In this document: piece by piece, positions 19,392 through 63,735 of the stretch
Numbering within the stretch: position 1 is the stretch's first letter
Layout: every line of letters starts with the position of its first letter
Source: Chiloscyllium plagiosum
Lineage: Eukaryota
Length of the DNA: 64,000 bases
Assembly (NCBI RefSeq): GCF_004010195.1
Contig: NC_057734.1
Location: 22,559,736-22,623,735, forward strand
Reading direction: 5' to 3'
Translations under genes and position numbers: made by a program
Notes under the pieces: model-generated
Told to the model about the DNA's origin: nothing
The model's database searches: none
Seen by the model: only the letters and a program-made list of their open reading frames with translations

Positions 19392-19553
19392 CCAAAATGT
19401 GTTGCTGGAAAAGCGCAGCAGGTCAGGCAGCATCCAAGGAGCAGAAAAATCGACGTTTCGGGTATAAGCCCTTCTTCAGGAATGTAGAAGGAGGAAGAGA
19501 GCTTCTTCAAGGATATAACTCTGATTCTTCAGCATCTGCAGTCCTCACTTTTT
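19392..19553. mobile_element. Mini PLE-derived insertion with hammerhead motif and 16-bp TSD
   Basis: TSD ccacaagccacagatt at 19376-19391 and 19554-19569. Minus-strand CUGAAGA-GGGC/ACCC-GAAACGUC at about 19448-19483. Confidence 0.85.
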
Positions 19554-22076
19554 CCACAAGCCACAGATTGGCAACTACATCCCAAGTATCAGCGTAAGTT
19601 ATATGTTCACCTCAATTAGGAGGAAACTGAAAAGTCCAATGTAAATGAAAAGGCAAACAATAGGTAAAAGAGGAATAAAAACATTGCCAGTGCACGTCCG
19701 AATATTAATCAGCTTTCAGAATCCAATCCAATCCAATAAACTTTCATTCCCCTTTTATAAAATGATGTGAATTCTTTAAGTGGACTGCCATCTTAATTTG
19801 TTCCTGAGTTCCTTATGTCAGCTACCTGACAGATATATGAATAATATTGCACTTATAAGTGAATTGTTTATTCAATGTAGCACTCTTCTTATCCCTTAAA
19901 ACAATTTCAACTTTGGCCAGATGCCATACTCTAGTAAGATTCCTCTCTCTAAATGGAGTGAGCTTTTTTGCCAACTGGAATTGGTCTGTCAATATGGTTG
20001 ACATCAAAAACTGCTCTCCTCATAGAATAACTGACAGCAAGGGAACATGCCAATAAAAATCATTAAAGAAACAGCAAGTCCTAAATGTATCCATCACTTA
20101 TGTGCATAAGAAATGATATAAGTTTGGACCTTCGCCCAAGGCTCCAGTACATGCTCAGAATCCAGTCATTTTACGCAGTCATCCAAAACCCTATGAGTAT
20201 CCCTCCAGCCATCTGCTACATCCTACGGAATACATGAGAAATATCTGTGGAAATCGGTTTGACAGAAAAATACAACAAAGAACAAGTAAAATGGAAGGAG
20301 AAATAATTAATTATGTGTACATTCCCTGTCTACCATGTTCTGATATGCTTTACTCTACACTTTACATAATTGACTCCCAAGTGCAGTGGGGCTGTACAGT
20401 GTATGTTCGGTGTGGCAGCGAGCCCGCTGAGGAAGATTGCAGGATCTGTTAAATCTGCAAAGGGGGTGGAGTGGCCAGCAATCGCTCATAGGAAGCCTGG
20501 GTTAGAAGCCTGCTGCTGGTGGGCATGCGGAGGTCAGAATCCTGTGGTGGGATCAGGGGCACTGGGATGAAGGTGATGGTGAAGCAATAGATCACAGAGG
20601 CTCCTCTGGCAGGCCCTTGGTCCCAGGAGGATGGATTCTCTCTCATCCTGAATCTGTCAGTTTCTCATCTCAAAGAAGCAGCCAGGCTTTTCAAGGAGAA
20701 CCAGCCAACCTGAGTGTGAGGTAAAAAAATGGAATGGCAATCAGGTTTACAGCCTGATTGTCCTTTGTAAACAGCGTTCACAGAGAAATTGGTAACCTGA
20801 GCAACTTCAGGCCAGAGTTAAAGCTGTAATTGGATGGGAGGAGGTGGACTTGACTCACCTGATCCAAACCCAAACCAAAACTCCAGCCGTTCACTCTGTC
20901 AAACTCCTCTATGAATTCTCTCTCAGACACTGCTCCAGGTAGAATCAATACTCGCATCAGTTGCAGTTTGCATCAACTAGGGCAATCTGGTCCAAATAAT
21001 TTGAGCAACTTCAGACTTTGGGTGTACAATCCACTTTCTTGTTACATGCAGTGGGTTATCAAATATCTGAGATGTGAGGCACGTTAAGGGAGATTGTTCT
21101 GCCAAGGGCTCTGAGTCATGTATTAGATACTTTTCTTTAAGTGGACTGCCATCTTAATTTGTTCCTGAGTTCTACTAAATCCACTCGACTCACAGTCTCA
21201 TGGAGTATCTACAAAACCTCTGATTCAGGCCACAGAAAGTCTACTCCATTTTGTTTCTGACCTGCTGACCTGGCAGCATTTTCATCCTTTCCAATGGATT
21301 ACCACACACCTCTCCATCTTGAACTTAGGTTTTCCCATTCACTTAGAATCAAAGAATCATAAAGACGTAGATGGAGGTCATTCAGTTCATCAAACTTATT
21401 TGGGACACTCTGTGTCCCTTTAAAAGATTCCGATACCATTTGCACCATAATTAATTTTGGTCCCATGCAATTAGTCATATCTTCATCTAATTGATTATAC
21501 AAAATGGTGAAAAGTTGAGACTGCAGAATACCATTTCTCACACCTGAGTATATATCTTTACCCCCATTCTGATTCCTACCTGTCACCTAATTATAAACCA
21601 AAGTCAAATAACTGCCTCTATTTCAGGGCATTCTCATGTTTTGCTCATGATCTGCTTTATGGAGCTTCGTCAAATGCCTTCCAGAAAGCCACAAAATGGA
21701 ACACCCACAGGCACTCCCTTGACATCCTTGGAAAAGTCAATGAGATTATCAGATGCAACATACAATTAACAAAGTCGTGCTGGACTCTCTGTCCATGTTA
21801 TACAAAATAACTTCACCACAACTCATGCAGGAAGTGTTGTTATTTGCCACTAGCATTTTGAAACTGTGTTCGGAGGAATAAGAATTAGTTTACAGAGACA
21901 TTAAGCTAGCAGCATCATGGTCACACAATCTTTCAATAAGTTTATTTAACTGAGTTAAGATGAACCATTTGAATTGAAACTTGATAAACTCTGGCACACC
22001 AACACCGAATGGAAATTATTTAGTTTATTTTACATCCATTTCAATGTGTTAACAGGACAGAGTATCAGATACTCAC

Positions 22077-22194
22077 TTTGGCAGGAGAGATCACAGGTTC
22101 CACCAAGAGGTCGATCAGTGGCTGATAGTACATTGATGGTAATATCCGGTCCTCTGCCAACCTGACTTTTAATCGCAATGCTCCTAATTTACCA
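22077..22194 (-). CDS. RASAL1: RASAL1 internal exon: GKLGALRLKVRLAEDRILPSMYYQPLIDLLVEPVISPAK
   Basis: 118 nt, tcacag acceptor and gtgagt donor, phase 2-0. Matches the recalled human segment GNLGALRVKVRLIEDRVLPSQCYQPLMELL. Confidence 0.93.
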
Positions 22195-22399
22195 CTGTGA
22201 AAATACAGATAATACGACAATGACATTGACACTTTCCATCTGGAGTTGGTAAAAGATATCACTGACCTTTGTAGGTATGTCTTATGTAATTGCTCAGGAT
22301 TTATACATGAAGTTCTGCATTCTGTTTTAAGTACTGATGTAGACCATCTAGAGCATAGTGACCAGAATACATCACACATTAGGATGATCTAGAGGATGC

Positions 22400-24417
22400 A
22401 AGTATAACTAAGAATTATGTCAGTACATTGAACACATTTGATGAGCTGAGAATAGAACTTGTGAAAACAAAACGGGCCACAATATCTGCAAACAGCAAAG
22501 TAGACCAACAATGGGCAAGGGTTAGAACAGTTTTCAATAACAGCGCAGGAAAAATATTCTGCATTAAAAGGAAAGAAATTAAAACTATTGAGACTTTATT
22601 GATGAATAAAGGTACGAGACAACAATTGAGAGTACGGAAAGAGGCATACATTAAGTAGACAGACGACAGTGGATAGTAAGAGAGAACACAAAGAGATTAA
22701 GAGAAAAATAAAGAAAGGGAAAGAGGAGCTATGCCATCAGGGAACATAGAATTAACTCACAAAATATTTTATAGACCCATCAGTAGAAGGTGAAGAATGA
22801 GATGACAGTGAGACCATTAGTGGAGAAGTCATGATGAAAACATTGCAGATAAAAATAAAGAGTTTACAGAAATATTAACTAATTATTTTGCGTAAATAGT
22901 CACCAGAGAGATAACAGGTCAGCATTACATTGAATGATAAGATAACTAATGAGATAAGTGTGGAAAAAGTGAGGACTGCAGATGCTGGAGATCAGAGCTG
23001 AAAATGTATTGCTGGAAAAGCGCAGCAGATCAGGCAGCATCCAAGGAGCAGGAGAATCGACATTTTGGGCATGAGCCCTTCTTCAGGAATGAGGAAAGTG
23101 TATCCAGCAGGCTAAGATACCTTCCTAACCTGCAATCTTCTTCCTGACCTCTCCGTCCCCACCCCCACTCTGGCCTATCACCATCACCTTAACCTCCTTC
23201 CACCTATCCATTTCCAACACCTCTCCCCCAAGTCCCTCCTCCCTACCTTTTATCTTAGCCTGCTTGGCACACTTTCCTCATTCCTGAAGAAGGGCTCATG
23301 CCCGAAACGTCGATTCTCCTGCTCTTTGGATGCTGCTTGACCTGCTGCACTTTTCCAGTAACACATTTTCAGCTAATGAGATAAGTGTGTTTAGATTTTA
23401 AAAATGTGATGCATTAAATGAAACAATCAAATTAAGAGGATAAAACCCCAGTTTGGATGGATTGCATCTCCACGTTTTAAAAGAATCAAGAAAAGAGATA
23501 GCAGAGACACTCCTACATATATTTAATAATTTATTCAAGAAAGTTTACAGCCAAAGGACTAGGGGATACTAACATTATACCTATATTTAAGAGGAGAGAC
23601 AGGGCACATTTAGCGAATTATAGACCAGTTAATTTATCTTAACTGGCAAGAAAAGTAATGAAATGCCCACTAAATGAGAGAAGAGGAGAATACCTACGAC
23701 TAAAAAAAATGTAGTCAGCACAGATTTCAAAAGTACAGCAGATACAGACAAGGTTCACCAGGATGTTGACTGGGATGGAGAAACTGAACTATAAGGAGAA
23801 AATAGATAGGCTTGGACTGTTTTCTTTAGAACAGAGAAGACTGAGGGAAGGTATGTTTGAGGTGTATAAGATTATGAGGGGCATGGACAGAGTGAATAGA
23901 CAGCAGCTGTTTCTCTTGTTGAGGGGCCAATCATGAGAGGGTAATTGGTGTATATTTTGGTTTAAAAGTGAGTTTGAGATAAAATAGAATATTGGACTTC
24001 ACTTCATGAGGCTCAGAAAACAAGGGTAGTGTGGTTATGGTCCAATTGAACACAGATTTCGTCCAGTGTTCGATTGTACTAAAAGGTAGAGATCAGATTT
24101 TCCACAATCACATGGAAACTTAAGTAAGGGTTAAATTATGAGGACATGCTGCATAAACATAGCTTGAATCACCTTGAATTTAAAAGGCTGAGAGACAATC
24201 AAACCAAGGTATTTAAAACAATTTAAAGAAGGTTCTGATGGGGACATCTCAAACAGAAAAGCAATATTAGGAAATAAGGGTTACACAAAGGGTGGTTGAA
24301 ATCTGGAATTTACTTCCATTAAGTTGTGAAATTCAGGTCAATTGAAGTTATGGAGAGTCTTATGGTATGCATCAAGGGATATGGATCAAAAATAGATTGA
24401 TGGGGTTGTGGTTCAGA
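22400..24417 (+). mobile_element. Old CR1 ORF2 remnants hosting younger insertions
   Basis: Decayed motifs such as cctatatttaagagg...aattatagaccagtt and tgttttctttagaacagagaagactgagg. Confidence 0.65.
22963..23372. mobile_element. Fold-back PLE terminal-repeat element with two opposed hammerhead motifs and 17-bp TSD
   Basis: TSD ctaatgagataagtgtg at 22946-22962 and 23373-23389. Inverted arms of about 120 bp. Intact core at 23284-23311. Confidence 0.88.
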
Positions 24418-26490
24418 TCAGAGGAAGAAAGATCCTAAGGGGAGGCAGGGGCGGCCATGGCTGACGAGGGAAGTTAAGGACTGTATAAAGGTAAAAGAGA
24501 AGAAATATAACATAGCAAAGATGTGTGGGAAACTGGAGAACTGGGAAACTTTTAAAGAGCAACAGAGGATAACCAAAAAGGCAATACGCAGAGAAAAAAA
24601 ATGAGGTACGAAGGCAAACTGGCCAAAAATATAAGGGAGGATAGCAAAAGCTTTTTGGGGTATGTGAAAAGAAAACAAATGGTTAAGACTAAAATTGGGC
24701 TCTTAAAGACAGAAATGGGTGAATTTATTATGGGGAACAAGCAAAATGCAGAAGAGTTGAATAGGTACTTTGGATCTGTCTTCACTGGGGGAGACACAAG
24801 CAATCTCCCAGATGTAGTAGTGGCTGAAGGACCTAGTGTAATGGATGAACTGAAAGGAATTATATTAGGCAGGAAATGGTGTTGGATAGACTGTTAGGTC
24901 TGAAGGCTGATAAGAGGCCGGGACCTGATGGTCTGATTCCCAGGGTGCTTAAGGAGGTGGCTCTAGAAATCGTGGATGTATTGGTAATCAATTTCCAATG
25001 TTCTATCAATTCATAATCAGTTCCTATGGATTGGAGGGTGGCTAATGTTGTCCCACTTTTCAAGAAGGGAGGGAGAGAGAAAACAGGGAATTTTAGACCA
25101 GTTAGCCTGACATCAGTGGTGGGAAAGATGCTGGAGTCAATTATAAAAGCTGAATTAACGACTCATTTGGATAGCAGTAACAGGATAGGTCAGAGTCAGC
25201 ATGGATTTACGAAGGGAAAATCGTGCTTGACTAACCTTCTGGAATTTTTTGAGGCTTTAACTATGAAGATGGACAAGGGAGAGGCAGTGGATGTAGTATA
25301 CCTGGACTTTCAGAAAGCCTTTGATAAAGTCCCACATAGGAGATTAGTGAGCAAAATTAGGGCACATGGTATTGAGGGCAAAATACTGACTTGGATAGAA
25401 AATTGGCTGACTGACAGGAAGCAAAGAGTAGTGATAAATGGGTCCCTTTCAGAAAAGCAGGCAGTGACCAGTGGAATACCACAAGGTTCAATGCTAGGAC
25501 CACAGTGGTTTACAATATACATTAATGATATAGATGAAGGCATTAAAAGTAATATCAGCAAATTTGCTGATGACACAAAGCTGGGTGGCAGGGTGAAATG
25601 TGAGGAGGATGTTAATAGAATACAGGGTGACCTGGATAGGCTAGGTGAGTGGACAGATACATGGCAGATGCAGTTTAATGAGGATAAATGTGTGGTTATC
25701 CACTTTGGTGGCAAGAACAGGAAGACAGATTACTATCTAAATGGAGTCAAGTTAGGTAAAGGGGAAGTACAACGAGATCTAGGTGTTCTTGTACACCAGT
25801 CAATGAAAGCAAGCATGCAGGTACAGCAGGCAGTGAAGAAAGCTAATGACATGCTGGCCTTCATAACAAGAGGAATGGAGTATAGGAGCAAAGAGGTCCT
25901 TCTGCAGCTGTACAGGGCCCTGGTGAGACCACACCTGGAGTATTGTGTGCAGTTTTGGTCTCCAAATTTGAGGAAGGACATTCTGGCTATTGAGAGTGCG
26001 CAGTGTAGGTTCAGGAGGTTAATTCCTGGATGACGGGACTATCATTTGTTGAAAGATTGGAGCGACTGGGCTTGTATACACTTGAGTGTAGAAGAATGAG
26101 AGGGGTTCTGATTGAGACGTATAAGATTATTAAAGGATTGGACACTCTGGAGGCAGGAAGCATGTTTTTGCTGATGGGTGAGTCCAGAACCAGAGGACAC
26201 AGTTTAAAAATAAGGGGTAGGGCATTTAGAACAGAGTTGTGGAGAAACTTCTTCATCCAGAGAGTGGTGGATGTATGGAATGCTCTGCCCCAGAAGGCAA
26301 TGGAGATCAAGTCTCCGGATACTTTTAAGAAAGAGATGGATGTAGCTCTTTAAGGTAGTGGAATCAAAGGTTATGGAGATAAGGCAGGAACAGGATACTG
26401 ATTGTGGATGATCCGCCATGATCATAATGAATGGTGGTGCTGGCTCGAAGGGCAAAATGGCCTACTCCTGCTCCTATTGTCTATTGTCTA
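24418..26490 (+). mobile_element. Young 5-prime-truncated CR1 LINE with RT domain
   Basis: 335-aa ORF 25026-26033 with NFRPVSLTS, YLDFQKAFDKV, QGSMLGP and KFADDTK. Few disruptions; ctattgtctattgtcta tail. Confidence 0.96.
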
Positions 26491-29644: not shown

Positions 29645-29736
29645 CCTTCATCGTCTTCATTTTTTTCAAAAGGCAACAATCTAAACCAACCCTTGGTCAC
29701 TTGAGTCTTCAAAAGGGCATCTAGATTGAAGTCAAC
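29645..29736 (-). CDS. RASAL1: RASAL1 internal exon: VDFNLDALLKTQVTKGWFRLLPFEKNEDDE(G)
   Basis: 92 nt, cag acceptor and gtaagt donor, phase 0-2. KGWFRLLPF matches the end of RASAL1 C2B, and the phase fits both neighbours. Confidence 0.93.
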
Positions 29737-30223
29737 CTGTTTAGCAAAGAAATAGGTATATTGCTTTGCATGTGTACAAACAAGAACAAGCAGTGAAAAC
29801 ACAGCTATGAACGTAAACTAGTTGGTGTTGATCTAATGTTTCTACTTGTAGCTGCAATGACATCTGGAAGCTCAAAACCACTTACAACAGAGCAGTCTGT
29901 TTTATGAGTACATTGATCACTGGCCTCAGGATCTATCTATTACCTCAGTGGAAACAGTGGTTCAAGAAAGCAGCTCACTACCACATTCTTCATGGTAACT
30001 AGGGCTTCAGTGTGTTCTGCCTAGAGGATGTATTGCACCAACACGCTGAGCTCGGTTGAATAGCACCTCCTGTCTTTAACAAGAGTAGCAAAACCAATGA
30101 CTTCAAGGTCCCCTACAAGTACCTCCAAGCTTAGACATGTAACTTGGACATGTAGTTCCAATCCTGGAATTCCTCACAATAATCCTTGTGAGGAACCATG
30201 TCCCTCACAAGGATTATGGGCAA

Positions 30224-30791
30224 TGAGTTTTGAGATTTGTAGCTCAGGTTGAGGTTCTGGATGTAGGTTTGCTTGCTAAGCTAGAAGGTTCATTTTCAGA
30301 CGTTTCGTCACCATACTAGGTAACATCTTTAGTGAGCCTCCGAACAAAGCACTGCTGATGTTTCCTGCTTTCTATTTTACATATTAGGGTTTATTTAGGT
30401 TGGTGATGTCATTTTTGTGGTGATTTCATTTCTATGGTGATGTCATTTCCTGTTCTTTTTCTCAGGGGCTGGTAAATGGGATCCAAGTCAATGTGTTTGT
30501 TGATAGATTTCCGGTTAGAATGCCATGCTTCTAGGAATTCTCATGCATGTCCAACCGGAACTCTATCAACAAACACATTGACTTGGACCCATTTACCACC
30601 CCCCGAGAAAAGAACAGGAAATGAATCACCATGGGAAATGACATCACCAACCCAAAGAAACCCAAACATATAAATAGAAATCATGAAACATCAGCAGTGC
30701 TTCATCCGGAGGATCACTGAAGATGTTACCTAGTATGGTGATGAAATGTCTGAAAATGAACCTTCCAACTCAACAAGCAAACCTACATCCA
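30224..30791. mobile_element. Inverted PLE (second family) with two hammerhead motifs and 12-bp TSD
   Basis: TSD gattatgggcaa at 30212-30223 and 30792-30803. Long inverted arms. Minus-strand EFLEAWHSNRKSINKHIDLDPIY resembles a GIY-YIG C-terminus. Confidence 0.88.
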
Positions 30792-33083: not shown

Positions 33084-33429
33084 TCCAACCAGACTGCATC
33101 ATCGTCGACTTCACCAGTTTCCAATCTCCCCTTCCTCACCTCATCCCAGATCCAACCCTCCAACTCGGCACTACCCTTTTGACCTGTCCTACCTGTCCAT
33201 CTTCCTTCCCACCTATCTGCTCCAACCTCCCCACCGACCTATCACAATCACCCCCCCATCCGCAACCACCTACCTTCCCTCCAGCCCTATCCCCACCCTC
33301 CTATTTATCTCTCAGCCCCCTTCCCCCTCCACATTCCTGATGAAGGGCTTATGCTTGAAATATCTACTCTCCTGATCCTCGGATGTTGCCTGACCTGCTG
33401 TGCTTTTCTAGCGCCACACTTTTCAACTT
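33084..33429 (+). mobile_element. PLE 3-prime terminal repeat with degenerate hammerhead
   Basis: LQPDCIIVDFTSF-type ORF end, C-rich tract, ctgatgaagggcttatgcttgaaa, and a possible taaaaatgt TSD. Confidence 0.8.
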
Positions 33430-34148: not shown

Positions 34149-34383
34149 TGTAGTGATTGTAATGAGGTCAGCCAGATGGACCTCATAGAATATGAGTTTC
34201 CTGACTGGGGCTGTTAATCTGGTCCAATCAGGGTGCCCTGGCTGACAGATAAAAAGAGGAGAGTCAGAGATTTTGGTACACTGAGAGCTGACTCTGAAGA
34301 GGTAGTATTAGAGGCAAGGGCTGTTCAAGTGTTAATAAATGGTGACTTGGTAACGGGATACCAGCCTCTGTGGGGTTGTTTCA
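34149..34383 (+). mobile_element. Solo LTR inserted in a minus-strand CR1 (about 33700-34620)
   Basis: TG...CA ends, CCAAT, GATAAAA and AATAAA. Flanks gaaac/aaaac. CR1 sequence continues on both sides. Confidence 0.7.
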
Positions 34384-34790
34384 AAAACAACTCCAACTTG
34401 TCCAATCTCTCTTCATAACTGAATTTCTCTAACCCAGGCAACATTCTGGTCACTATCCTCTGTGCCCTCTTCCATTCTATCACATAATGTGGATTCCAGA
34501 ACTGCACACAATACTCTGGTTGTGACCTAACCCAGTTTTAAACAGTTCCATCATAACCTCCCATGCCCTTACACTGTACGCCTCAGCTAATAAAGGCAAG
34601 TATAGCCTATGTCCTCTTCCAAATGATTCTTCCAATACTTCATTAAATGTAGTTTTGACTTGCCTTTTTGTACCAGTTTTAAAATGTTAATTCACAGCAG
34701 AGAATAAAACAGCAAATTCTCAGTATTGCACCAATTATATCATTAAGAGGTTTTTAGATTAGATTACTTATCTCTGACTCTCCTCTTTTT

Positions 34791-35112
34791 TTTTCGTAGC
34801 CGCGGAAGAGGGGCAGGCAGTCGGCCCTAACGACCCCCTCCACGGCCCGCTGCCTGGACCTGTTGATGGCCAGTTTGGCCGGGCCCCGGAGCAGACCCAC
34901 GAGGAGGTCTTCAGATCTGCCCTCCTTCCTCCACCCTCCTGTTTATTTTTTTTTTGTGAATCTCCTGTTTATTTTTTTTTTAAACCCCCACACTACCACC
35001 TAAGTGCGGTAGTGCTTATTTTATTCCCCAGCACCCATGGTGTGTGTGTGCAGGTGTGAGACACAGTGAAAGACACAAAGTGCACGAAACTTTATTCAAT
35101 TTCCACCACCAG
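34791..35112 (-). mobile_element. Tx1/L1-clade LINE-derived composite insert with 15-bp TSD
   Basis: Minus strand reads GRSEDLLVGLLRGPAKLAINRSRQRAVEGVVRADCLPLFR (Tx1-like ORF2 end). T tracts present. TSD gactctcctcttttt at 34776-34790 and 35113-35127. Confidence 0.65.
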
Positions 35113-39421: not shown

Positions 39422-40610
39422 TAAAAATGTGTTTCTGGAAAAGCGCAGCAGGTCAGGGAGAATCGACGTTTCAGGCATAAGCCCTTCTTCAGGAATGAGG
39501 AAGGTGTGCCAAGCAGGCTAAGATAAAAGGTAGGGAGGAGGGACTTGGGGGAGGGGCATTGGGAATGCGATAGGTGGAAGGAGGTTAAGGTGAGGGTGAT
39601 AGGCCGGAGAGGGGGTAGGGGCGGAGAGGTTGGGAAGAAGATTGCAGGTCAAGAAGGCGGTGCTGAGTCCGAGGGTTGGGACTGAGAAAAGGTGGGGGGA
39701 GGGGAAATGAGGAAGCTGGAGAAATCTGCATTCACCCCTTGTGGTTGGAGGGTTCCTAGGCGGAAGATGAGGCGCTCTTCCTCCAGACGTTGTGTTGCCA
39801 TGGCCTAGCGATGGAAGAGGCCAAGGACCTGTATGTCCTTGGCGGAGTGGGAGGGGGAGTTAAAGTGTTCAGCTATGGGGCGGTTGGGTTGGTTAGTGCA
39901 GGTGTCCCAGAGGTGTTCTCTGAAACATTCCGCAAGTAGCCAGCCTGTCTCCCCAATGTAGAGGAGGCCACATCGGGTGCAGCGGATGCAGTAAATGATT
40001 TGTGTGGAGGGTCAGGTGAATTTGTGATGGATATGGAAGGATCCTTTGGGGCCTTGGAGGGAAGTGAGGGGGGAGGTGTGGGCACAAGTTTTGCATTTCT
40101 TGCGGTTGCAGGGGAAGGTGCCGGGAGTGGAGGTTCGGTTGGTGGGGGGTGTGGACCTGACAAGGGAGTCGCGGAGGGAGTGGTCTTTCTGGAAGGCTGA
40201 TAGGGGAGGGGAGGGAAATATATCCTTGTGGTGGTGTCTGTTTGGTTGTGGCGGAAATGACGAAGGATGATACGATGTATCTAGAGGTTGGTGGGGTGGT
40301 AGGTGAGGACCAGTGGGGTTCTGTCCTGGTGGCAATTGGAGGGGCGGGGTTCAAGGAAGGAGCAGCGGGAAGTGGAGGAGATGCGGTGGAGAGCATCGTC
40401 AACCACCTCTGAGGGGAAATTGCAGTACTTGAAGAAGGAGGCCGTCTGGGTTGTTCAGTATTGGAATTGGTCCTCCTGGGAGCAGATGCGGCGGAGACGA
40501 AGGAATTGGGAATATGGGATGGCATTTTTACAGGGAGCAGGGTGGGAGGAGGTGTATTCTAGGTAGCTGTGGGAGTCAGCCGGTTTATAGTGAATGTCCG
40601 TGTTGAGTCG
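39422..40610 (-). mobile_element. Penelope-like element 3-prime portion (RT end, GIY-YIG endonuclease, terminal repeat with hammerhead)
   Basis: HSYLEYTSSHPAPCKNAIPYSQFLRLRRICS and PCNRKKCKTC linker, with frameshifts. Hammerhead core at about 39461-39496. Confidence 0.92.
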
Positions 40611-40821
40611 GCTGGCTGATTTTCTCTTGCAGAGAGCTGGCATGGCCATGACAGGCCAAATAGCCTCCTTTTGTGCTGTAACCATTCTATGATTGAATGA
40701 TGGCTGAACAATTCAGAATTACAAATGAACTGCTGCTGAAATGACAAGTGGAAACCACTCTTTTGGGGGATTTGCTGACAATGACAAGTTCTACAGCTGC
40801 CAGCATGACACGTTCAGTTGA

Positions 40822-41110
40822 CAAGGTAAAAACAATGACTGCAGATGCTGGAAACCAGATTCTGGATCAATGGTGCTGGAAGAGCACAGCAGTTCAGGCA
40901 GCATCCGAGGAGCTTCAGCAAAATCAACGTTTCAGGCAAAAGCCCTTCATCAGGAATAAAGGCAGAGAGCCTGAAGCGTGGAGAGATAAGCTAGGGGAGG
41001 GTGGGGGTGGGGAGAAAGTAGCATAGAGTACAATAGGTCAGTGGGGGAGGAGATGAAGGTGACAGGTCAGGGAGGAGAGGGTGGAGTGGATAGGTGGAAA
41101 AGGAGCTGGG
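40822..41110 (-). mobile_element. PLE terminal-repeat fragment with hammerhead
   Basis: Minus strand CUGAUGA-AGGGC-UUUU-GCCU-GAAACGUU at about 40922-40957. Confidence 0.8.
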
Positions 41111-47689: not shown

Positions 47690-47830
47690 CTTGCCTAGAA
47701 AATCATTCTTTCCCACCATGTCCCAGTCCCAAACTTCCACAGTGAACATCATTCCTTCTGTCGGTAAGCCATCCTCCAGTTCAAACTCAAATACTTCATT
47801 CCAGTGAGGAAAACGAGTCTTCTTTATAGT
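47690..47830 (-). CDS. RASAL1: RASAL1 internal exon, C2B domain: TIKKTRFPHWNEVFEFELEDGLPTEGMMFTVEVWDWDMVGKNDFLGK
   Basis: 141 nt, ag/gtaag, phase 0-0. Contains TIKKTRFPHW and the Ca2+-loop motif WDWDMVGKNDFLG typical of RASAL1. Confidence 0.95.
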
Positions 47831-50539: not shown

Positions 50540-51500
50540 GGTTTGGTCCTTGAACCCCAGCTTTTTACAATCTCCATTAACTTGGATACAGGGATAGAAG
50601 TCTCTAAAGCCAAATTTGTGGACAACACAAAAATAGGTGGGATGGTAAATTGCAACGAGGAAATCAGAACCTTACAAGTGGATATAGATAGGTTGGGAGA
50701 GTGGCCAAAATGTGGCAGATGGAGTTTAATGTGGGTAAGTGCGAGGTCATGCATTTTGCTGAAAAAAATGGGAAGGTGACCTGTTATCTAAATGGGCAGA
50801 GACTTCAGGATGTGCTGGTGCAGAGGGATCTGAGTCACAGAAAACTAGCATGCTGGCACAGCAGATAATAAAGAAAGCAAGTGGAATTGTTTTTATAACT
50901 AAAGGAATAGAATTTAAATTAATGAAGTATTGTTGCAACAAGGCATTGGTGAGACCACACCTGGAGTATTGTGCACAGTTTTGGTCCCCTTATTTGAGGA
51001 AAGATGTAGTGGCATTGGAGGTAGTTCAGAGGAAGTTCACTAGATAGATGAGGGGTTTGTTGTATGAAGAGAGATTGAACAGTTTCGGCCTGTACTCTCT
51101 GGAATTTAGAAGATAGAGGGGAGATCAAATTGAGGCATTCAAGATGATAAAAGGTGTGGATTAAATAGACATGGAGTGGATTCTTCCTGTTGTGGGGAAT
51201 TCTAGAATGAGTGGTCATGGTCTTAGAATAAGGGGTAGCAAGTTTAAAACAGAGTTGAGGAGAAACTACAGGTTGTGAATTTATGGAATTCATTACCCCT
51301 AAGAGCGGTGAATGCTGGGACAATGAGGAAAATAAAAGAGGAGTTACTCAGACATTTAATTGGTAATAGGTTGAAGGGATTCGGGAAGAAGACAGGAAAA
51401 TGGGGGTGAGGAACATATCAGCCATGACTGAATGGCAAATCAGATTTGAAGGGCTGAATGGCCTAATTTTGCTCCTGTATCTTATGAACTTATGATCTTA
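50540..51500 (+). mobile_element. CR1 LINE fragment
   Basis: KFVDNTKIGG and ALVRPHLEYCAQFWSP. Confidence 0.9.
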
Positions 51501-51725
51501 TGAAATACTAAATTAGAGGAATTACCAAAATAATGCATTTTTATACAAATAATTCTACAGTGAAAATTCAAACGTGAAGGTTTTAAAGATTAATTTGGAA
51601 CTAAACAGTTGGTAAAAGTAATATTAAAGTAGCTGTTTAGTGGTAACAGGAGAAGGGTTCTTATAATTCTGTTATTGGCTGATCATGTGATATCTGTTGC
51701 CAAACGCAAGTCTTTAAAGCTAATC

Positions 51726-51818
51726 TTTCCTGAAGAAGGGCTTATGCCCGAAACGTCGATTCTCCTGTTCCCTGGATGCTGCCTGACCTGCTGCGCTTTT
51801 CCAGCAACACATTTTCAG
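51726..51818 (+). ncRNA. 93-bp retroposed unit headed by a minimal type I hammerhead ribozyme
   Basis: CUGAAGA at 51730-51736, stem II GGGC/GCCC, GAAA at 51750-51753, GUC at 51755-51757. TSD ctttaaagctaatc at 51712-51725 and 51819-51832. Confidence 0.8.
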
Positions 51819-52602
51819 CTTTAAAGCTAATCACACAATGCCAATGAGGTTCAGATTATACTTCAATTTGAATGGGAAGCATAAAAAAGGAATTTTTGGA
51901 ATCAAACACATTTACAGTAAATACAAACCAAGCTAACATTTCCATCAGCAAAGTCAAATTTTGTTATGATACTAAAACAGGAGTCAAATGTGGTAAATCA
52001 AAGCAGCTTTTGTTTGCATGCAAAACATAACAGACGGCTGCTTCTACATCACACTCAGAGTAAAGAAGTAGGTGTTCTTGTGAAGTAGCATACTTCAGAA
52101 TTGAATTATTATTGTCTGCATCAAGTCTGAGTTCTGAACATTAGATTCTACAACTGTCTAATTTCTCACAATTACATTTAGCAATTAAACTTGTTATTAC
52201 TGACAAAGTTTTCTTTCCTTATCTGAACAAGCCTCCATTCATAGTAAATATCATTCTAATGCCAAACAACATGGTCAAATTTATTAGAGAAGCAAAATTA
52301 AAATGTGATTTGGGTCAACTGATGCTGATAAACTGAGTGATATTAACTATGCAAAATGTTCAAGGAGAACAATGCTACTTATTAGGTCAACATTTATTGC
52401 CGATCACTAATTGTTCTTGCAAAGGTGATGATGAGCTGCGTTCTTGAACCAAAACCAGTCCATGTGGTGAAGGTATAGCTACAATGATGTAAGGAGAGGA
52501 ATTCTAGGAGTTTGATACACTGACAGTGAAGCAAAAATGATAGACTTCCAAATCAGAAATGATTGGCACCATGTACAGTTGAATAACTGTTATATAAAGT
52601 AG

Positions 52603-52719
52603 GAGAAATTGAGGACTGCAGATGCTGGCAAGCAAAGTTAAAAAGTATGGCACTGGAAAAGCACAGTAGGTTGCTGGCTGACCTGCTGTGCTTTTTCAGC
52701 GCCACACTTTTTATATAAC
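52603..52719. mobile_element. Mini fold-back PLE insertion with 17-bp TSD
   Basis: TSD actgttatataaagtag at 52586-52602 and 52720-52736, enclosing opposed terminal-repeat pieces. Confidence 0.75.
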
Positions 52720-55627
52720 ACTGTTATATAAAGTAGTTGAGTAAATTAATGTTTACATCAAAGTTCTCTCATTGCAAGTTTAAAATTTGTTGTAACCTTC
52801 AGCTGCTCCCAGAGTTCCAAGTTTCTAGTAATTTCATAGCAAATACCTTTACCAACAACAAGCACTGATTGCTTTGTTCCTGATTTTGCAATTTTAAGAT
52901 TGTTGATGTTTACCATCAGAATCAGGATCAAATTTTGTGAAGTGATTAAAATAGTATTTGGCTTTGCAAATCAGTAAGGAAAAGAAAGGAACAAGTGGTT
53001 TAAAATGTTTGATTTCTGGGTTCAAAAGGTTGATTAACATAGCATTAACAATTATCACATGGTCTTAAGGTACAGTTAATTAGCAGACTTAACTTTCTGT
53101 GACAAGTTCAATGGAAAATTAATATGCAAATCCACCAAGCTCTTAGAAATCACACGGAGCCTAAGGACAAGATGCTGCTTTTGCAAAACAAAAGATGGAG
53201 TTACATAATTCAACCAGCAAGTTCTGAAGATTCACAATACTCAGTATACCTTTTAACCACCTGAATTTTCTGGCAGAGTTGCACTTTAATTACTTGGCAG
53301 TGGATTATGTGTCATAATTTCTCCAGCAAGATTTGGCCCATTATGTTTTGTCAGACTATTTCAGGGGAATGGCTTGATAGTTAAGCAATAATACTTTTAG
53401 GTTTTTTTTTGTATGTTAGTCAGCAAGTTTTAATGAATTATAACTTGTAAAGGAAAGTAAAAGGAAAGTAAACCAGATAATCTAAACTCGGTTGCAATTT
53501 TATTTGTTAAACACAGTGTGTTTAGCCAACAGTCTATGGGCTAGAAAATTACTTTTTGAATGATCTCATCCAATAGAATATTCTGAAACAAATGGCCATA
53601 AACGAATCAGAGTTAATAGTTTATACAAATGCAGGCATCCAACTTGCAGATTGTCTTAATGTTAATCAACATATCATTTTTTCCATAATTTATTTTGTTA
53701 CAGGGACATTAACTCATTTCCATTTGCTTCACACTCCCACAGCTAGTGATCTGACAACTCTCAAAATATTAAGCATTAATAATTTGTTACAGAAATAGCT
53801 TAAGTTTTCACTTTATGACTCATCTGAAATTTCTAAGGTTTACAATCCAGCATCTTAGGCCGCAGATTATTGAAGCAGTTTCTCCCTCAGTTGTTCCATA
53901 ATTTGGATAAGAGTCAAATCGTCAGTGAAGCCTCCGTGCATTTTTAAGGCAATATTTTTCATACTTGTTTTTTTCAGACCCTATTTAGAGAATTATAGCA
54001 GTAGCAAAACGTCTTTGGAAAGAGAAACACCTCTTAGTAAGTAAGAACAAGTATTGGATAATGTGCTGTGTTTTCAATATCTTCAATCCAACTTAAAGTG
54101 GTACGTTACTAAACATGCTGGTTTTACATTTTCCTCACCAGCATTTATTACCCTCTAACGTTTTGACCATTTGCTGGGATGTAATTTTACAGGCACTAGT
54201 CATGTTGCTGGTGATAATTTTAATGAATCTGTTCAAAGGTTATAATATACACCTCTGGTGCAGGTGGGACTTGAACACGGAACCTCTCAGCCAGAGGTCG
54301 GAACATTACCACTGCAACACAAGAACTCCTCAGCATTTTGCTGGATCTCATTCAGATGAACATTATTCACCTGAATGATATACCAGATGTTAACAAGCTA
54401 TCATAAATGTCAACACAGTCAAGCTATTACCTGTTTCTACATGATGACTATAAACACAAACATACTCATGTACACAAACAAAACAATGCTCATACATTTG
54501 CAATAGGGGTCAGCGAATAACAATAAGATGAAAGAAGTCTCATCAACATTTCCAACCCTAATCCAGTTGAAGTGGTTAACTGGTTAATTTAGTATTAACT
54601 GAACAAGTGCCAGTTAAAATGTGACTTTCTGGTTTGAGTAGATCTTGGGCTAAATCCACTGAGACATAAAGAGAACTGTGTTTTTGTTCTCAAAACTATC
54701 ATATCACATACTCATAACAGTAAGACTGCTATTTAAGAAAGGAAATAGGAAGAATATAGAGAACTACAGGTCAAGTGGGTTAGCATCAACCAGCAGAAAA
54801 TGCTGGAATCCATCATTAAGGAGGCTAACGGGTACCCAGAAGACTATAACATGATTTGGCAGAGTCAACATGGTTTTATGAAGGAGAAGTCAATTTATTA
54901 ATTTTTTAAAATAATTCCTGGGATCAGAGGGCTGCCCTCTGAAGAGAGGTTGAGTAAAATGGATCTACTCTCCCTGGAATTTAGAAGAATGAGGAGTAAT
55001 CTCACTGAAACAAATCTTCTGAGAAGGCTACAAATTCCCAGGATAAGGGATCTACTATTTTTTACCCATTCATGGGATGTGGACACTGTTGGCTAGGCCA
55101 GGATTTATTGCCCCTGTTGCCCTTGAGAAGGTGGTGGTGAGCTGCCATCTTGAACCATTGCACTTCATCTACTGTGCGTGGACCCATAGTGCTGTTAGGG
55201 AGGGAATCTACTGAGATGAGGAAAAATTTCTTCACATAAAGGATTGTAAACGTTTGAAGTGCTTGCTCCAGAGGGAGGTAAATCTTCAGTCACAGACTGT
55301 ATTCAGGATTAATATTGATAGTTGTTTTGGACGCTAAAGGAAACTGAATGATTCAGGGAGTGGCCAGAAAAGTGGCAACAAGATTTAAAAGATCAGTCAT
55401 GAGTTTATTGAATGTTGGAGGATATACAAGAGGTCTGTGGCCCATACCCGCTCCCTATCTTTTACCTTCTGATGTTCTTATTAACATATTACTCAATATT
55501 CTAAGATAAAATATGGCATAATTTCTCCACACACATTTTGTCCAATAGTCACACTTTAGGTGTGATAAATGTTACATTCAACTCTTGAATGTTGAGTGCC
55601 TTCTATGTAAGTATAAACGCAGTTCCT

Positions 55628-55742: not shown

Positions 55743-55823
55743 TTATTTAATTGTGACTTGTTTGGTGATAGTGACATCTCTAAGAATGAATATAACAGAA
55801 AAATATAAAGACGAAAAACTCAC

Positions 55824-55905
55824 AGCTGTTTCTGTAGTCTTGTTGTTAAATACCAGTCTTGCAAATGGATCGGATGTGCCAGAAATATCTCTTGGTGCGA
55901 GGTCT
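55824..55905 (-). CDS. RASAL1: RASAL1 internal exon, start of C2B domain: (R)DLAPRDISGTSDPFARLVFNNKTTETA
   Basis: 82 nt between a tctccttag acceptor and a gtgagt donor, phase 2 to 0. Closely matches the recalled human RASAL1 segment DLAPRDISGTSDPFARVFWGSQSLETS. Confidence 0.92.
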
Positions 55906-56414
55906 CTAAGGAGATAATAAAGAATAAAAGAATAAAAGATCCATAATACTTTCTCAGGTCACAGCCAAAGTAGTAAGTTATTAAATTGCAGTCTGAGCAC
56001 ACAGCTTCACCACAGTTAATTAGCAGTGATAAGATAATAGAAGTAAATCCATCAGGAATATCTGAGCAGCAGCAATGAGCATAATGAGGCCAACCACCTC
56101 CTCTCCTCAGTTTAGTCAAAAAGTGAATTGAGTTTCACCTTGATCTGCAAAAGGCTCTGAATGGGCACTCCATTTGGAGTTCTTCCTATCTTGTGGGAAT
56201 GCATGAAGGATTGCCAATCACTTTTTCAGGGAGAGGTGTCTCTGTGCGTAAGATGGAAAGCACGGACTATCTACTTCACATGCTGGCTGCCTCCAGCTAA
56301 AGCTCTTTAAGCATGTTACTGGAGACAACAGTCTTTCCTCAGGTATTGGTGGTCCCAACTTCTTACTCCAATGGAAAGGTATGTTGAAAATGATGAAAGT
56401 TAAAGGGACACATG

Positions 56415-56746
56415 ATTAGATTAGATTAGATTAGATTAGATTAGATTAGATTAGATTACTTACAGTGTGGAAACAGGCCCTTCGGCCCAACAAGTCCACA
56501 CCGACCCGCCGAAGCATAACCCACCCATACCCCTACATTTACCCCTTACCTAACACTATGGGCAATTTAGCACGGCCAATTCACCTGACCTGCACATCTT
56601 TTGGACTGTGGGAGGAAACCGGAGCACCCAGAGGAAACCCACGCAGACACGGGGAGAATGTTCAAACTCCACACAGTCAGTCGCCTGAGGCCGGGTCTCT
56701 GGCGTTGTGAGGCAGCAGTGTTAACCACTGTGCCACCGTGCTGCCC
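56415..56746 (-). mobile_element. HE1-type SINE with expanded (ATTAG)n tail and internal B-box deletion
   Basis: Near-identical to 2575-2893 but lacks the attgaac segment. Confidence 0.9.
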
Positions 56747-56989
56747 ACCCCATCAGTTCCTGGGGATTTATTAACTTTCAGCTCCATTAATTTCTCTAGT
56801 TCTCTAGTATAATCTTCTTACTGATGCTAATTTCTTTTAATTCCCCAACCTCTATGGCCGCTAAGATCTCTAGCGCTGGTACATTTCTGGTATCTTCCTC
56901 AATGAAAACAGACACAAATCATCATTCAGCTTCTCTGCCATTTCTCTATTTCCCATTCTCCTGAATCTGCCGATACTGAACGAATGAAC

Positions 56990-59370
56990 AAAAAACAGAA
57001 ATTGCTAGAAAAGCTCAGCAGGTCCGGTGACATCTATGGAGAGAAATCAGAATTAACGTTTCGTGTCCAATGATCCTTCCTCAAAACCGATGGTAGTTAG
57101 GAAAATGTCAGAAGATAGGGTGAGAAAAGGGGGTAAGGAGTAAACAATAGGTTGGGATAAAGCCCAAAGAGAGAGAAGAACAGTTGGACAGATAAAAGAG
57201 TGGATAATGATCTGGCTGAGAGGGTGAATGGAGACTGTTAGTGGCTAACAATGGGTTGTGTCTAATACTGGACTATAAGATAACAAGATCTGGTGTTGGG
57301 GGTGGTGGCTTTGACATGGGAGAGTTCAAGCTTAAAAGTTATTGTCTCGATATTGAGTCTGGAGGGCTGCAGGATCCCCAAGCATAAAATGACATGTTGT
57401 TCTTCCAACTTGTGCTAAGCTTCACTGGAGCAAAGCAGCAAGCGTGAGACAGAGCTATTGGCCAAGGAACAGAGTGGTGTGTTAAAGTGGCAGGCAACTG
57501 GAAGCTTAAGGTCATTCTTGCGGGCAGAACATAGGTATTCTGTGAAGCCGTCACCCAGTCTATGCTTCGTATCCCCAGTGTACAGAAGGCCGCATTGTGA
57601 ACAGACAATGCAGTAGACTAGGTTGTGAGAAGTGCAGTAAAGTGCTAGTTCACCTGGAAGGTATGTTTGAGCCCTTGGATACTGAGGAGGAAGGATCTAA
57701 ATGGGCAGCTGTTACACATCCGGCAGTTGCAAGGGGAAGGTACCGTGGGGCTGTGGGGGAGGTGTAGGAAGAGTGGGTCAGGGTATCCTGCAGAAGGCGG
57801 GCGAGGGTAATATGTGTCTGTTGGTGGCATCTCACTGGAGGTGGCGGAAGTGGCAGCTAATGATCTTCTAAATGTGGATACTGATGGAATGGTAAGGACA
57901 AGGCCACAATTTCCTCTCCCACGTGGTCGATGATGCCCTCCAGCACATCTCATCCACTTCCCGCACCTCTGCCCTCGAACTCCACCCCTCCAACTGCAAC
58001 AAGGACAGAACACCCCTGGTCCTCTTCTTCTACCCCACCAACCTCCAGATACATAGCATCATCCTCCGCCATTTCCACCACCTACAAACAGACCCCACCA
58101 CCAGGGATATATTTCTCTCTCCACCCCTATCTGCATTCCGTAAAGACCATTCCCTCTGCAACTCCTTTGTTACGTCCACAGCCCCCACCAACTCACCCTC
58201 CCCTCCCGGCACCTTCCTCTGCCACCACAAGAATTACAAAACCTGCACCCACACCTCCCCCTTATCTCCATCTAAGGCCCCAAAGAAGCCTTCCGCATCC
58301 GACAGAGATTCACCTGCACTTCCACACACATCATTTATTGTGTTTGTTGCTCTCGATGTGTTCTCTTTTACATTGCAGAGACAGGACACCTACTTGCAAA
58401 CATTTCAAAGAACATCTCTGGGACACCCACACCAACCAACCCCACCTCTCCATTGCTGACCAGTTTAACTTCCCTTCCCACTCCCCCAAGGACATCCAGG
58501 GCCAGGGCCTCCTCCATCACCAAACTCTTACCATCCAATGCCTGGAGGAAGAACACCTCATCTTCTGCCATGGGACCCTCCAAACACATGAGATCAACTT
58601 GGATTTCACCAATTTCTAATTTCCCCTCCCCCCATCTTATTCCAGATTAAACCTTCCAACTCAACACCGCCCTCATGACCTGTCCTACCTGTCCATTTTC
58701 CTTCCCACTCCAGTCTCCTCTCCCACCTATCACCATTACCCCCAACTCCATCCATCTATTGCACTCTCAGCTACCTTGCCCCCAGCCCCAGCTCCACCCC
58801 CCTCCCATTTATCTCCAACCCCCCTCCCACAAGCCTCATTCCTAATGAACAGCTTATGTTTGAAACAACATTCTCCTGCTCCTCAGATGCTGCCTGACGG
58901 GTTGTGCTTTTCCAGCACCACACTCTCGACTCTGATCTCCAGCATCTGCAGTCCTCACTTTCTCCAAGGACAAGGGGAACGCTATTGCTGTAGCAGGACG
59001 GAAGAGAGGGGGTGAGGGCCGAAGTGTGAGAGGTGAGTTGGACCCAGTTGAGGGACAAGTCAACAATGGTACTGGGGAATCTTAGGTTGAGGAAGAAATT
59101 GGACATTTTGTAGTCTTCCTTGACGAAGTTGGCACCGTCGGAACATTTGCAACAGTGACGGAGGAACTGGGAGAACAGAAAGCAGGGTGGAAGGATGTAT
59201 AGTCCTGATAACTGAGAGTTGGTGGGTTTGTAGTAGATATTAGTGGCCAGTCTATCTCCAGAAATAGAAACAGAAATGTCGAGGAAGGGAAGGGAGGAGT
59301 CAGAAATGGACCAGGTGAAAGTGAAGGAGGGGTAGAAATTGGAAGCAAAATCAAGAAACCTTTCCAATTC
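56990..59370. mobile_element. PLE cluster: an older minus-strand element interrupted by a plus-strand PLE (about 57902-58965)
   Basis: ORFs 57923 and 57930 (RTPLVL, RFKEHL-like, LEEEHLIF) and 58771 (FTWSISDSSLPFLDISVSI). Hammerhead remnants near 57055 and 58840. Confidence 0.88.

Positions 59371-60208: not shown

Positions 60209-60210
<2 letters not shown>

Positions 60211-60241
<31 letters not shown>
60211..60241. repeat. (TC)15 microsatellite
   Basis: Read directly. Confidence 0.98.
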
Positions 60242-60242
<1 letters not shown>

Positions 60243-61621: not shown

Positions 61622-62970
61622 AGGAGAAAGTCCGGACTGCAGATGCTGGAGAATCAGAGTTGAAAAGGGTGGCGCTGGAAAAGCACAGCAAGTCAGGCAG
61701 TGTCCAAAGAGCAGGAGAGTTGATGTGTCAGGCATAAGTCCTTTCATCAGGAATGTGGAGTGGGAAGGGGATAAATAGGGGAGTGGGATTGGGCTGGGGG
61801 GGAAGATAGATGTTCAAAGTTGGGAGAAGATTTGTAGCTCAGGTGCTTGTTAGATTAGATTAGATTCCCTACAGTGTGGAAACAGGCCCTTCGGCCCAAA
61901 AAGTCCACACCGACCCGCCGAAGCGCAACCCACCCAGACCCATTCCCCTACATTTACCTCTTCACCTAACACTACGGGCAATTTAACTTGGCCAATTCAC
62001 CTAACCTGCACATTTCTGGACTGTGGGAGAAAACCGGAGCACCCAGAGGAAACCCACGCAGACACAGGGAGAACGTGCAAACTCCACACAGAGAGTCGCC
62101 TGAGGCGGGAATTGAACCCGGGTCTCTGGCACTGTGAGGCAGCAGGGCGGCACACTGTGCCACTTTGCCACCCACCAGCTCCTGACAATCGGAAGCAGCA
62201 GATACAAATCACTATTAATGCTGGAGGAAACAACACAGAAGCGCTTCACAGGAGGCTCCCAAGCATTGAGGATGTCACCCAGACAGGGGACGAAACGTCT
62301 GCAATACAAATTCCCAGCTCGGCGAACAGAACCACAACAACAGGAAGATAGATGGGAGGGCGATAGGTGGATGCAGGTGGGGGTAATTATGATAGGTAGG
62401 AGGGGAGGTTGGAGTGGATAGGTGGGAAGGAAGATGGACAGGTAGGACAGTTCAAGAGGGAGGTGCCGAGTTGGAAGGATGGATCTGGGATGAGTTGGGG
62501 GTAGGAGAGATTTGGAAACTAGTGAATTCGATGTTGATGCCGCATGGTTGAAGGGTCCTAAAGGTGGAAGATAAGGCATTCTTCCTCCAATTGGTGGGTG
62601 GCTTTGATTTGGCAGTGAAGGAGGTCCAGGACTTGCATGTCTTTGGGGAAGTGGGAGGGGGAGTTGAAGTGGTCGGCCACAGGATGGTGGGGCTTGTTTG
62701 GTGCATGTGTCCCAGAGATCTTCCCTGAAACTTTCTGTGAGTAGGCATTCTGTCTTCCTAATGTAGAGGAGACTACACCAAGAGAAACGGATGCGACAAA
62801 TGAGGTGTTTGGATGTGCAGGAAAATNNNNNNNNNNNNNNNNNNNNNNNNNNNGTCCCTGTGGAACGCACATAGGGATGAGGAGAATCTGATGGTGGGGT
62901 CTGACTGAAGGTGGCAGAAGTGGTGGAGGTTATTGCACTGTATTAGTGGGATGGAAAGTGAGGACCAATA
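61622..62970 (-). mobile_element. PLE containing a nested second-family PLE (61813-62342), which contains an HE1 SINE (about 61849-62160)
   Basis: TSD ggaagatagatg at 61801-61812 and 62343-62354. GIY-YIG remnants (HPVADHFNSPSH, LEEECLIF). Confidence 0.88.
62827..62853. other. Assembly gap (27 N)
   Basis: Read directly. Confidence 1.
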
Positions 62971-63654
62971 TAAATATATGTCTTTCTCTTGGCTTTACCC
63001 AAAGGTAACAGTAGAGAAGGCTCAAGTGGAAAGTCAGCTGTAGGCTCATTATTGCAATCTGCAGCCGTTCCTATTGACGTGCACTCAGTGAGTCCCTTTC
63101 TCACTGCCACAATGCCGTGACCACCTCAGCCCTCTTTGACCACCTGAAGAAACAAACTCGATACTACAGCCATGTGACATTCCTCAGCTGCTGTCTTCGC
63201 AACCATCTTGCCTGCCTACTGAAAAGCAAAGCAGTCAGGAGAAACCAGGTCTGTATGCTGACATATGCCTGTATGGCACACATTGCTTTCAACTGCAATC
63301 CAATTCAAAATTTCACTCGTGTTGGAAGAAATTCAGGGCTCCATGCCAGAGTGATGGATTTTGTTCCTGTATGGAGAGGAGAGTTTCTCCTTTCCTCCAA
63401 AGAGATAATACCAGTCACAAAATAATTGAAAATAAACTGTGCAGAATCCCTCTGATAACAAGTGTTGGCACAGCTGGAGCATGATTCGATATTTGACATG
63501 TGTTTGCTCCTCTGTGCTGCTGCAGAGCCAAAGCTGCTGTGAGAAGCCATAGTTTCGAACACCTCTGGGAGGCTCCTCAGGGCTCTCCGTGTATCCACAC
63601 TGCAAGATCTGGGGAAGGCGGACATTTTCAAGCTTTTGACAGGAATGGAGTTAA

Positions 63655-63735
63655 AAATCACACAACACCAGGTTATAGTCCAACAGGTTTAATTGGAAGC
63701 ACCAGCTTTCGGAGGGCTGCTCCTTCATCAGGCGG
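63655..63735 (-). mobile_element. PLE terminal fragment of another family with hammerhead motif
   Basis: Minus strand CUGAUGA-AGGAG...CUCC-GAAAGCUGG; the cleavage triplet is mutated. Confidence 0.7.

Follow-up and report, generated by a model that had tools for sequence, protein, structure and literature searches.

Minimal hammerhead motifs at the ends of Penelope-like elements in a shark genome, with copy junctions that point to an uncut RNA template

A 64,000-nt stretch of contig NC_057734.1 of the shark Chiloscyllium plagiosum (the window, to whose positions all coordinates refer) had been predicted to contain 14 cores of minimal hammerhead ribozymes, and each of the 14 sites carried the motif (Table 1). 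The sites are almost certainly inserted ends of five families of Penelope-like elements (PLEs), each with the known minimal hammerhead motif. The best explanation of the whole, which we hold with good confidence, is that the hammerhead fold of these PLE ends was under selection only in active elements and that most of the short copies arose by run-off. With copies this abundant, their junctions show which RNA templates were copied: for the most part uncut RNA, probably with its cap right at the motif. This restricts the possible models and points to individual bases.

The 5′ ends of copies were mapped for families A and D, the copies of B, C, E, F and G being too few, on arms chosen by their tail sequence only, downstream of the cut. 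For family A, 223 arms were found, 221 aligned and 199 kept (22 were dropped for identity <88% or N at the joint); for family D, 98 arms were kept out of 115 found. Among the reference sequences, one of 33 for A and four of 21 for D proved not to be genuine long copies, which adds a few false 'long' arms at most. In both families, the ends piled up at the 5′ edge of the motif and not at the cut site. Per base and per 100 arms at risk, family A had 0.24 ends downstream, 0.53 at the cut, 0.87 in the motif (−28..−3), 4.67 at −40..−29 and 0.44 beyond; the corresponding values for family D were 0.24, 0.22, 0.93, 4.95 and 0.61. Among arms not joined to an inverted arm, the rate at −40..−29 was 3.39 (A) and 3.33 (D). 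The peaks lay at −32/−31 in family A, on the first bases of helix I, and at −37 and −33..−30 in family D. A quarter of the arms ran far upstream.

The base before the family A peak was G in 18 of 26 arms, compared with 46 of 186 arms elsewhere (P = 1e-5), and non-inverted arms gave 8 of 15 versus 13 of 68 (P = 0.018). In a wider, overlapping set, from which arms matching the element at that base were set aside, G was present in 26 of 44 arms (P = 7e-6) and in 15 of 28 non-inverted arms (P = 0.002). An untemplated G has been described as a mark of the cap (PMC3287187), internal priming with uncut RNA as the main substrate was reported for another PLE (PMC11167929), and Drosophila Penelope has an internal promoter (PMC2377424). 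The pile-up at the motif edge, often behind an extra G, thus suggests run-off copies of capped, uncut RNA, and we consider it fairly probable that most short copies arose in this way. The extra G and the initiator-like context would make the 5′ edge of the motif the transcription start, so that helix I would begin at about base +1. Families E, F and G likewise have an A as the first base of helix I, which is four pairs long in them. Under such a mechanism, the RNA of the element would start, capped, at the hammerhead, reverse transcription would be primed in the tail 55–100 bases downstream of the motif, and the complementary DNA (cDNA) would run off the capped, uncut 5′ end to yield copies of 90–130 bases. 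Arms running far upstream would derive from the 3′ repeat of tandem elements. By analogy with what was published for other PLEs, the motif would cut only as a dimer or with the protein of the element.

The assignment of minimal type I hammerheads to PLE terminal repeats was supported by remnants of a GIY-YIG endonuclease, which lay immediately upstream of the motif in families A, E and C. A reverse transcriptase (RT) thumb, a CX4CxxC linker and GIY-YIG preceded sites 39492 and 58842, and GIY-YIG preceded 57084; elsewhere in the genome, B/C, F and G copies were likewise preceded by GIY-YIG matches. The closest proteins to the family A RT were those of sharks and rays, with full-length relatives carrying RVT_1 and GIY-YIG, and the CX4CxxC at 39480–40620(−) fits the CX2-5CxxC linker between RT and endonuclease of the Neptune clade, to which family A would belong on this criterion. 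The family A open reading frame (ORF) started approximately 140 bases past the cut site, after the tail. The search for a full-length element (two repeats around an intact ORF) covered 20 RT loci and 30 ORF-start loci, all of which were truncated or broken off by assembly gaps.

The copies were flanked by target-site duplications of 12–17 bases. Head-to-head pairs with one long-tailed and one short-tailed arm were frequent, and 87 of the 199 A arms and 52 of the 98 D arms were joined to an inverted arm. The 3′ ends of arms clustered near +55..66 and +96..101, two end points approximately 35–40 bases apart. This is the known insertion anatomy of endonuclease-bearing (EN+) PLEs (PMC8557442, PMC11167929). 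In two related organisms, in both of which family A was abundant, the locus of the stub at 51726..51818 showed one contig depth to its left and right, with records that continued across the joint; the stub seems to be absent from them, and at least one copy thus seems species-specific. Partial tandems of approximately 200–350 bases occurred at four loci outside the window. In them, the start of the ORF led directly into a second hammerhead, with the joint at its 5′ edge; they have two motifs on the same strand and are possible seeds of retrozymes.

The core CUGANGA ... GAAA ... UH was kept in the majority sequences of all families (the palindrome of family F aside). One unpaired base between positions 9 and 10.1 and the pair G10.1–C11.1 were present in the majorities of A, B, C, D, E, F and G, and B2 (three copies) had G–U. 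Helix III was absent, and all majorities had a palindromic ACGU or AGCU at 15.2–16.2 except F (ACAU, eight old copies). Helix I consisted of 3–4 pairs that covaried between families, being CG/TA/GC/AT in F, TA/TA/GC/AT in E, TA/CG/GC/AT in G, and AT/CG with TA, GC or CG in B, C and B2. The letters of helix II varied by family and its pairing was kept. Helix pairs were counted by script, as MAFFT aligned families B and C out of register. In family G, which lies outside the window, U3–A8 replaced C3–G8, with A8 in 100 of 100 among the matches listed and U3 in 9 of 10 sampled; this family has a full four-pair helix I and 995 exact copies, and it is missed by the strict CUGANGA descriptor. The same swap was reported for Schistosoma (PMC4209133). 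Since the helices covary between families, including the U3–A8 swap in the core, active elements appear to have kept the fold, and selection on it between families is likely.

It is very improbable that the motif owes its conservation chiefly to promoter function in the DNA, with an initiator and a downstream element, and only resembles a ribozyme. The initiator-like TCATTCC at −32 in family A counts in favour of this view. So does the ACGT of family A at +28..+31 from the inferred start, the position of the RGACGTGY downstream element of Drosophila Penelope (PMC2377424). However, both the compensation seen in helices I and II and the swap from C3–G8 to U3–A8 make sense only for an RNA fold. 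In Anolis, moreover, the related motif does cut, and the double mutant restores its activity (PMC11167929). A double role as promoter and ribozyme is possible.

Once inserted, the copies appeared to decay with little regard to the core. In the 33 long family A copies, subfamily differences were confined to positions outside the core. Freeing four A/T sites of the core added 3,194 matches to the 109,432 genome-wide matches of a looser family A pattern (112,626; 0.73% per site), and freeing three A/T sites of the flank added 3,556 (1.08% per site). CpG sites had changed in 4 of 66 cases in the core and 6 of 99 in the flank; a core-versus-flank comparison on the 33 copies gave 1 of 330 versus 18 of 1617 (P = 0.23, too small a sample). 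The gap between core and flank is real in the counts, yet it is as expected from minor flank subfamilies, and judged by these sequences the core of inserted copies is not protected. Missing cleavage together with a core kept no better than the flanks had been named beforehand as the outcome that would contradict the prediction, and this outcome is half realised.

Several observations weigh against the explanation by selected PLE ends and capped run-off. The G excess was weak in family A arms joined to flanking DNA (11 of 50 unconditioned, P = 0.86; 11 of 24 with still-matching arms set aside, P = 0.039), and at inverted joints the G can stem from the other arm. The start zone of family A was broad, with 30 arms ending at −40..−33, and no RNA start at −32 was seen in the RNA reads. 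None of the folded sites adopted the full hammerhead fold as a lone motif, and the commonest family, A, has one U–U mismatch in helix I of its main subfamily (the GAAU subfamily is fully paired). Core sites changed one third less than the flank, so that a little selection on copies is possible. No ORF or GIY-YIG of its own was found upstream of family D in 46 copies, so that a link of family D to an ORF is missing from the evidence; its tail, inverted arms and 5′ pile-up resembled those of the other families. Lastly, joints at the cut site outnumbered those at a control site about fourfold after correction.

The pile-up might alternatively mark structure rather than an RNA 5′ end, if RT stalled at, or switched template past, a folded and protein-bound hammerhead. 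The ends rose already inside the motif (0.87–0.93, compared with 0.24 downstream), the start zone was broad, and in more than half of the short arms the joint led to an inverted arm and had a few letters in common with it, all of which fit stalling. A stall would, however, be expected at the 3′ side of the stem and not beyond its 5′ end, it does not predict that 26 of 44 arms have an additional G at the peak, and arms beyond −41 continued with few stops. We regard stalling as unlikely, though it deserves more weight than the other alternatives considered here.

Another source of copies, proposed in PMC4209133, is RNA that was cut by the hammerheads into unit lengths, circularised and copied. 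The core and helices kept across families, with the compensating core swap, agree with it, as does a modest genome-wide excess of joints at the cut site. Foreign letters directly before the cut were present in 510 family A copies, compared with 211 at a control site eight bases on; corrected for the pass rates of the patterns (approximately 0.25 and 0.44), this corresponds to approximately 2,000 versus 480 joints, at most 2% of family A. Approximately 80 of the 100 cut-site joints listed, read by eye, followed element sequence that shared letters with the joint, and because most listed joints do so, much of the excess is explained by template switching. Moreover, arms that ended at the cut were few (5 of 187 in family A, 1 of 92 in family D), and several partial tandems rejoined the ORF start to the −32 edge and not to the cut. 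RNA ends showed no pile at the cut site, although same-species reads (approximately 2% of one single-cell run) tracked DNA depth and the library is a weak test. Monomers were inactive and dimers weak in PMC4209133, and the Anolis motif cut only with its protein and was not needed for insertion in vitro (PMC11167929). It is improbable that many copies came from cut RNA; as a minor route, such copying has about an even chance, and it is not the main route.

A further reading, which we offer tentatively and consider less likely than not, is that in shark PLEs the hammerhead, as the foremost structure of the capped mRNA, acts as a conditional decapping switch. Binding of the element's protein, or pairing of two RNAs through the palindrome, would trigger a cut that removes the cap and the first 32–37 bases, after which the message would become either a template or a dead end. 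The stubs would then be cDNAs comparable to strong-stop products, a quarter of a million of which would record the transcription start of each family. Jumps from the cap back into the ORF start could produce two-hammerhead tandems and thereby seed retrozymes.

The core was fully kept at seven of the 14 window sites and altered at the other seven, mostly by CpG or other transitions (Table 1). Minus-strand coordinates in the original prediction denoted the cut-side end of the motif, at most 4 bases off. Its description of helix III as reduced to the palindrome ACGU or AGCU holds for nine sites, the palindrome not being intact in the other five; the four stem II types by which it had distinguished about four PLE families are real, and site 57084 adds a fifth family. 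The strict descriptor (CUGANGA, helix II of at least 4 pairs, GAAA, NNUH) gave six matches in the window versus 0.05 in shuffles (20 shuffles). In an Rfam scan of the window, no hammerhead model matched at E up to 10, and single-strand folding of eight motifs gave uninformative z-scores of 0.2 to −1.4. No tandem unit of a retrozyme-type head-to-tail array was found among the 14 sites. Additionally, a family A head-to-head remnant at 52602–52717 has its joint downstream of the hammerhead and two arms without the motif; Rfam gave a spurious mir-263 match there. More old head-to-head arms of family E type lie just left of the window, and searches with the tail only yield more decayed copies than the 14 sites.

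Table 1. Hammerhead-bearing PLE copies and host exons in the window (C3, position 3 of the core; TSD, target-site duplication)
Feature	Position	Strand	C3 and core	Details
Host exon	22077..22194	−		In phase with exon 29645..29736
Host exon	29645..29736	−		Open frame with AG/GT borders
Host exon, C2 domain	47690..47830	−		Pfam C2, E 2.7e-10
Host exon, first part of C2 domain	55824..55905	−		Weak Pfam C2, E 0.18
Family A PLE end with minimal hammerhead	19394..19483	−	19479−, core intact	Cut after 19452; one stem II pair disrupted; upstream junction with a remnant of the ORF start
Family A head-to-head pair	22963..23372	both	23086−, G12A; 23284+, core intact	Minus arm long tail, plus arm short tail; 17-base TSD at 22946 and 23373
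Family B palindromic pair	30224..30791	both	30332−, G5A; 30717+, core intact	12-base TSD at 30212 and 30792
Old family A 3′ end	33084..33428	+	33337+, core intact	Helix I lost
5′-truncated family A PLE	39424..40620	−	39492−, core intact	RT thumb, CX4CxxC linker, GIY-YIG, 3′ untranslated region, hammerhead (tblastn E 6e-40); cut after 39465
Separate family A insertion, TTTT-loop subfamily	40825..41110	−	40953−, core intact	Cut after 40926
Family A stub of 93 bases, young	51726..51818	+	51730+, core intact	Begins at hammerhead 5′ edge; cut after 51757; 14-base TSD at 51712 and 51819
Family E PLE end	56990..57636	−	57084−, C3U	GIY-YIG remnant 57328–57636; decayed hammerhead, stem II broken
Old family A PLE 3′ part	57899..58966	+	58842+, G5A and U16.1A	GIY-YIG remnant and decayed hammerhead
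Old family A end	61623..61760	−	61750−, A14C	
Family C end	62170..62340	+	62266+, C3U	Helix I GCA/UGC
Family D stub	63640..63740	−	63731−, N17=G	AGCU palindrome

That the sites are intronic was correct: the window contains four minus-strand coding exons. Further exons of the host lie beyond both of its borders, on the left at approximately 8 and 37 kb, on the right at 31, 43 and 59 kb. The host is a C2-C2 gene extending over more than 160 kb, and its exon peptides resemble those of RasGAPs of the GAP1 family (RASAL1 or RASA4, for example), to which it probably belongs. The Pfam search of the window covered 228 open frames of at least 55 residues, of 499 listed, and missed host exons; weak matches, Teneurin_ABD (E 0.006) among them, were discounted as random. 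No RNA reads fell on the host exons in the RNA run examined for them. A possible plus-strand exon lies near 53980–54040.

Relative to the host gene, 8 of the 14 hammerheads are sense and 6 antisense; over 160 kb, after removal of three double listings, 13 sites are sense and 12 antisense (intact, 5 and 6). Sites 39492 and 40953 (39424–41110) are separate insertions on the host sense strand and form the only possible dimer in the window. Sense copies might cut or regulate the host pre-mRNA, as domesticated intronic hammerheads of amniotes do. For this speak the 8 of 14 sites on the sense strand and a conceivable dimer of 39492 and 40953, which are both intact, share ACGU and lie 1.46 kb apart. 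Against it stand the background density, the lack of strand bias among all and among intact sites, core changes in five of the eight sense sites, at least one copy that seems species-specific, and the inactivity of monomers in PMC4209133, and we give such a function hardly any credence. Because the density is that of the background, half of the sites are broken, strand bias is absent and core bases decay almost like the flanks, the intronic copies very probably are inert and do nothing for the host gene, for which they look like ordinary repeat litter.

The predicted local swarm did not hold up, as the density of the window was that of the genome background: strict matches numbered 6 in 63,973 window bases versus 57 in 775,880 called bases of a background sample of 80 evenly spaced 10-kb stretches (P = 0.33). 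Extrapolation gave approximately 253,000 strict motifs genome-wide (192,000–328,000). One family A motif had 37,054 exact matches genome-wide, and the family D pattern had 10,995. The expectation that such ribozymes are very abundant in shark genomes was thus supported for C. plagiosum, with approximately 250,000 strict motifs and the 109,432 matches to one family A pattern. In the far larger axolotl genome, 126,247 type I hammerheads were reported (PMC7229834), approximately half the number in the shark, although the descriptors differ.

The shark motifs agree with the minimal hammerheads in pseudo-long terminal repeats (pLTRs) of metazoan PLEs (Cervera and De la Pena 2014, PMC4209133) in the core, the unpaired base before helix II, G10.1–C11.1, the palindromic 15.2–16.2, the short helix I, the many families per genome, the mostly single or opposite-strand copies and a U3–A8 variant family. 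In contrast, the shark has approximately 250,000 motifs compared with approximately 4,000 in coelacanth and 9,000 in Xenopus, its helix II often has only 4–5 pairs, and the 5′ ends of copies were mapped here and not in the available text of that study. Like the Anolis Poseidon element PAc (Frangieh et al. 2024, PMC11167929), the shark elements have the hammerhead at the pLTR–ORF junction, two internal priming sites that yield an optional tail, a main substrate of RNA that is uncut (for the shark, probably so), and no RNA-seq ends at the cut. Unlike PAc, whose ORF starts in stem II, family A is Neptune-type (CX4CxxC) with an ORF approximately 140 bases past the cut, and run-off at a capped 5′ end is not described in the portion of that study that was covered. 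Strong 5′ truncation, an inverted adjacent copy, a 30–40-base tail at one end and partial tandems are shared with EN+ PLE insertions (Craig et al. 2021, PMC8557442), from which the shark arms differ in that both are often 90–130 bases long with the joint at the hammerhead 5′ edge.

Metazoan non-LTR retrozymes likewise carry type I hammerheads in mobile non-coding PLE-end repeats (PMC7229834; bioRxiv 10.64898/2026.07.22.740005), but these form tandem arrays with mostly canonical hammerheads and circles, whereas the shark copies are dispersed single or head-to-head stubs. Domesticated amniote hammerheads (RECK and others; PMC6155905) share the intronic location; they are single, canonical and conserved across species, in contrast to the repeated, minimal and decaying shark motifs. 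We found no description of shark PLE hammerheads in a literature search whose scope ended short of subscription journals, Repbase reports and some supplements, and no shark was named in the portion of PMC4209133 that was covered. Novelty is nevertheless smaller than the original prediction implied: the motif itself was described in PLEs of fish, coelacanth and frog (PMC4209133), and one chondrichthyan with hammerhead repeats and PLEs appears in the 2026 preprint (bioRxiv 10.64898/2026.07.22.740005). New are the shark families, the number of their copies and the junctions that speak for a template both capped and uncut; the kind of element was already known (PMC4209133, PMC11167929), and the role of PLE hammerheads is treated as an open question (PMC8557442, PMC11167929).

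Other repeats were also present in the window. A short interspersed nuclear element (SINE)-like repeat with a TTAGA-repeat end occurred in three copies (2575–2893, 56441–56747 and 61850–62174), and RNA reads were heavy and strand-biased in the area of one of them, at 56207–56547. Fragments of long interspersed nuclear elements of CR1/L2 type were located at 25017–26300, 45700–46500, 50300–51350 and 1381–1932 (RVT_1 E 3e-34 at 25017–26033). A decayed frame at 7335–7736 (−), without a Pfam match, looks similar to a Gypsy-type pol. At 34200–35178, a 66-base perfect inverted repeat with its arms 847 bases apart resembled the ends of a small DNA transposon.

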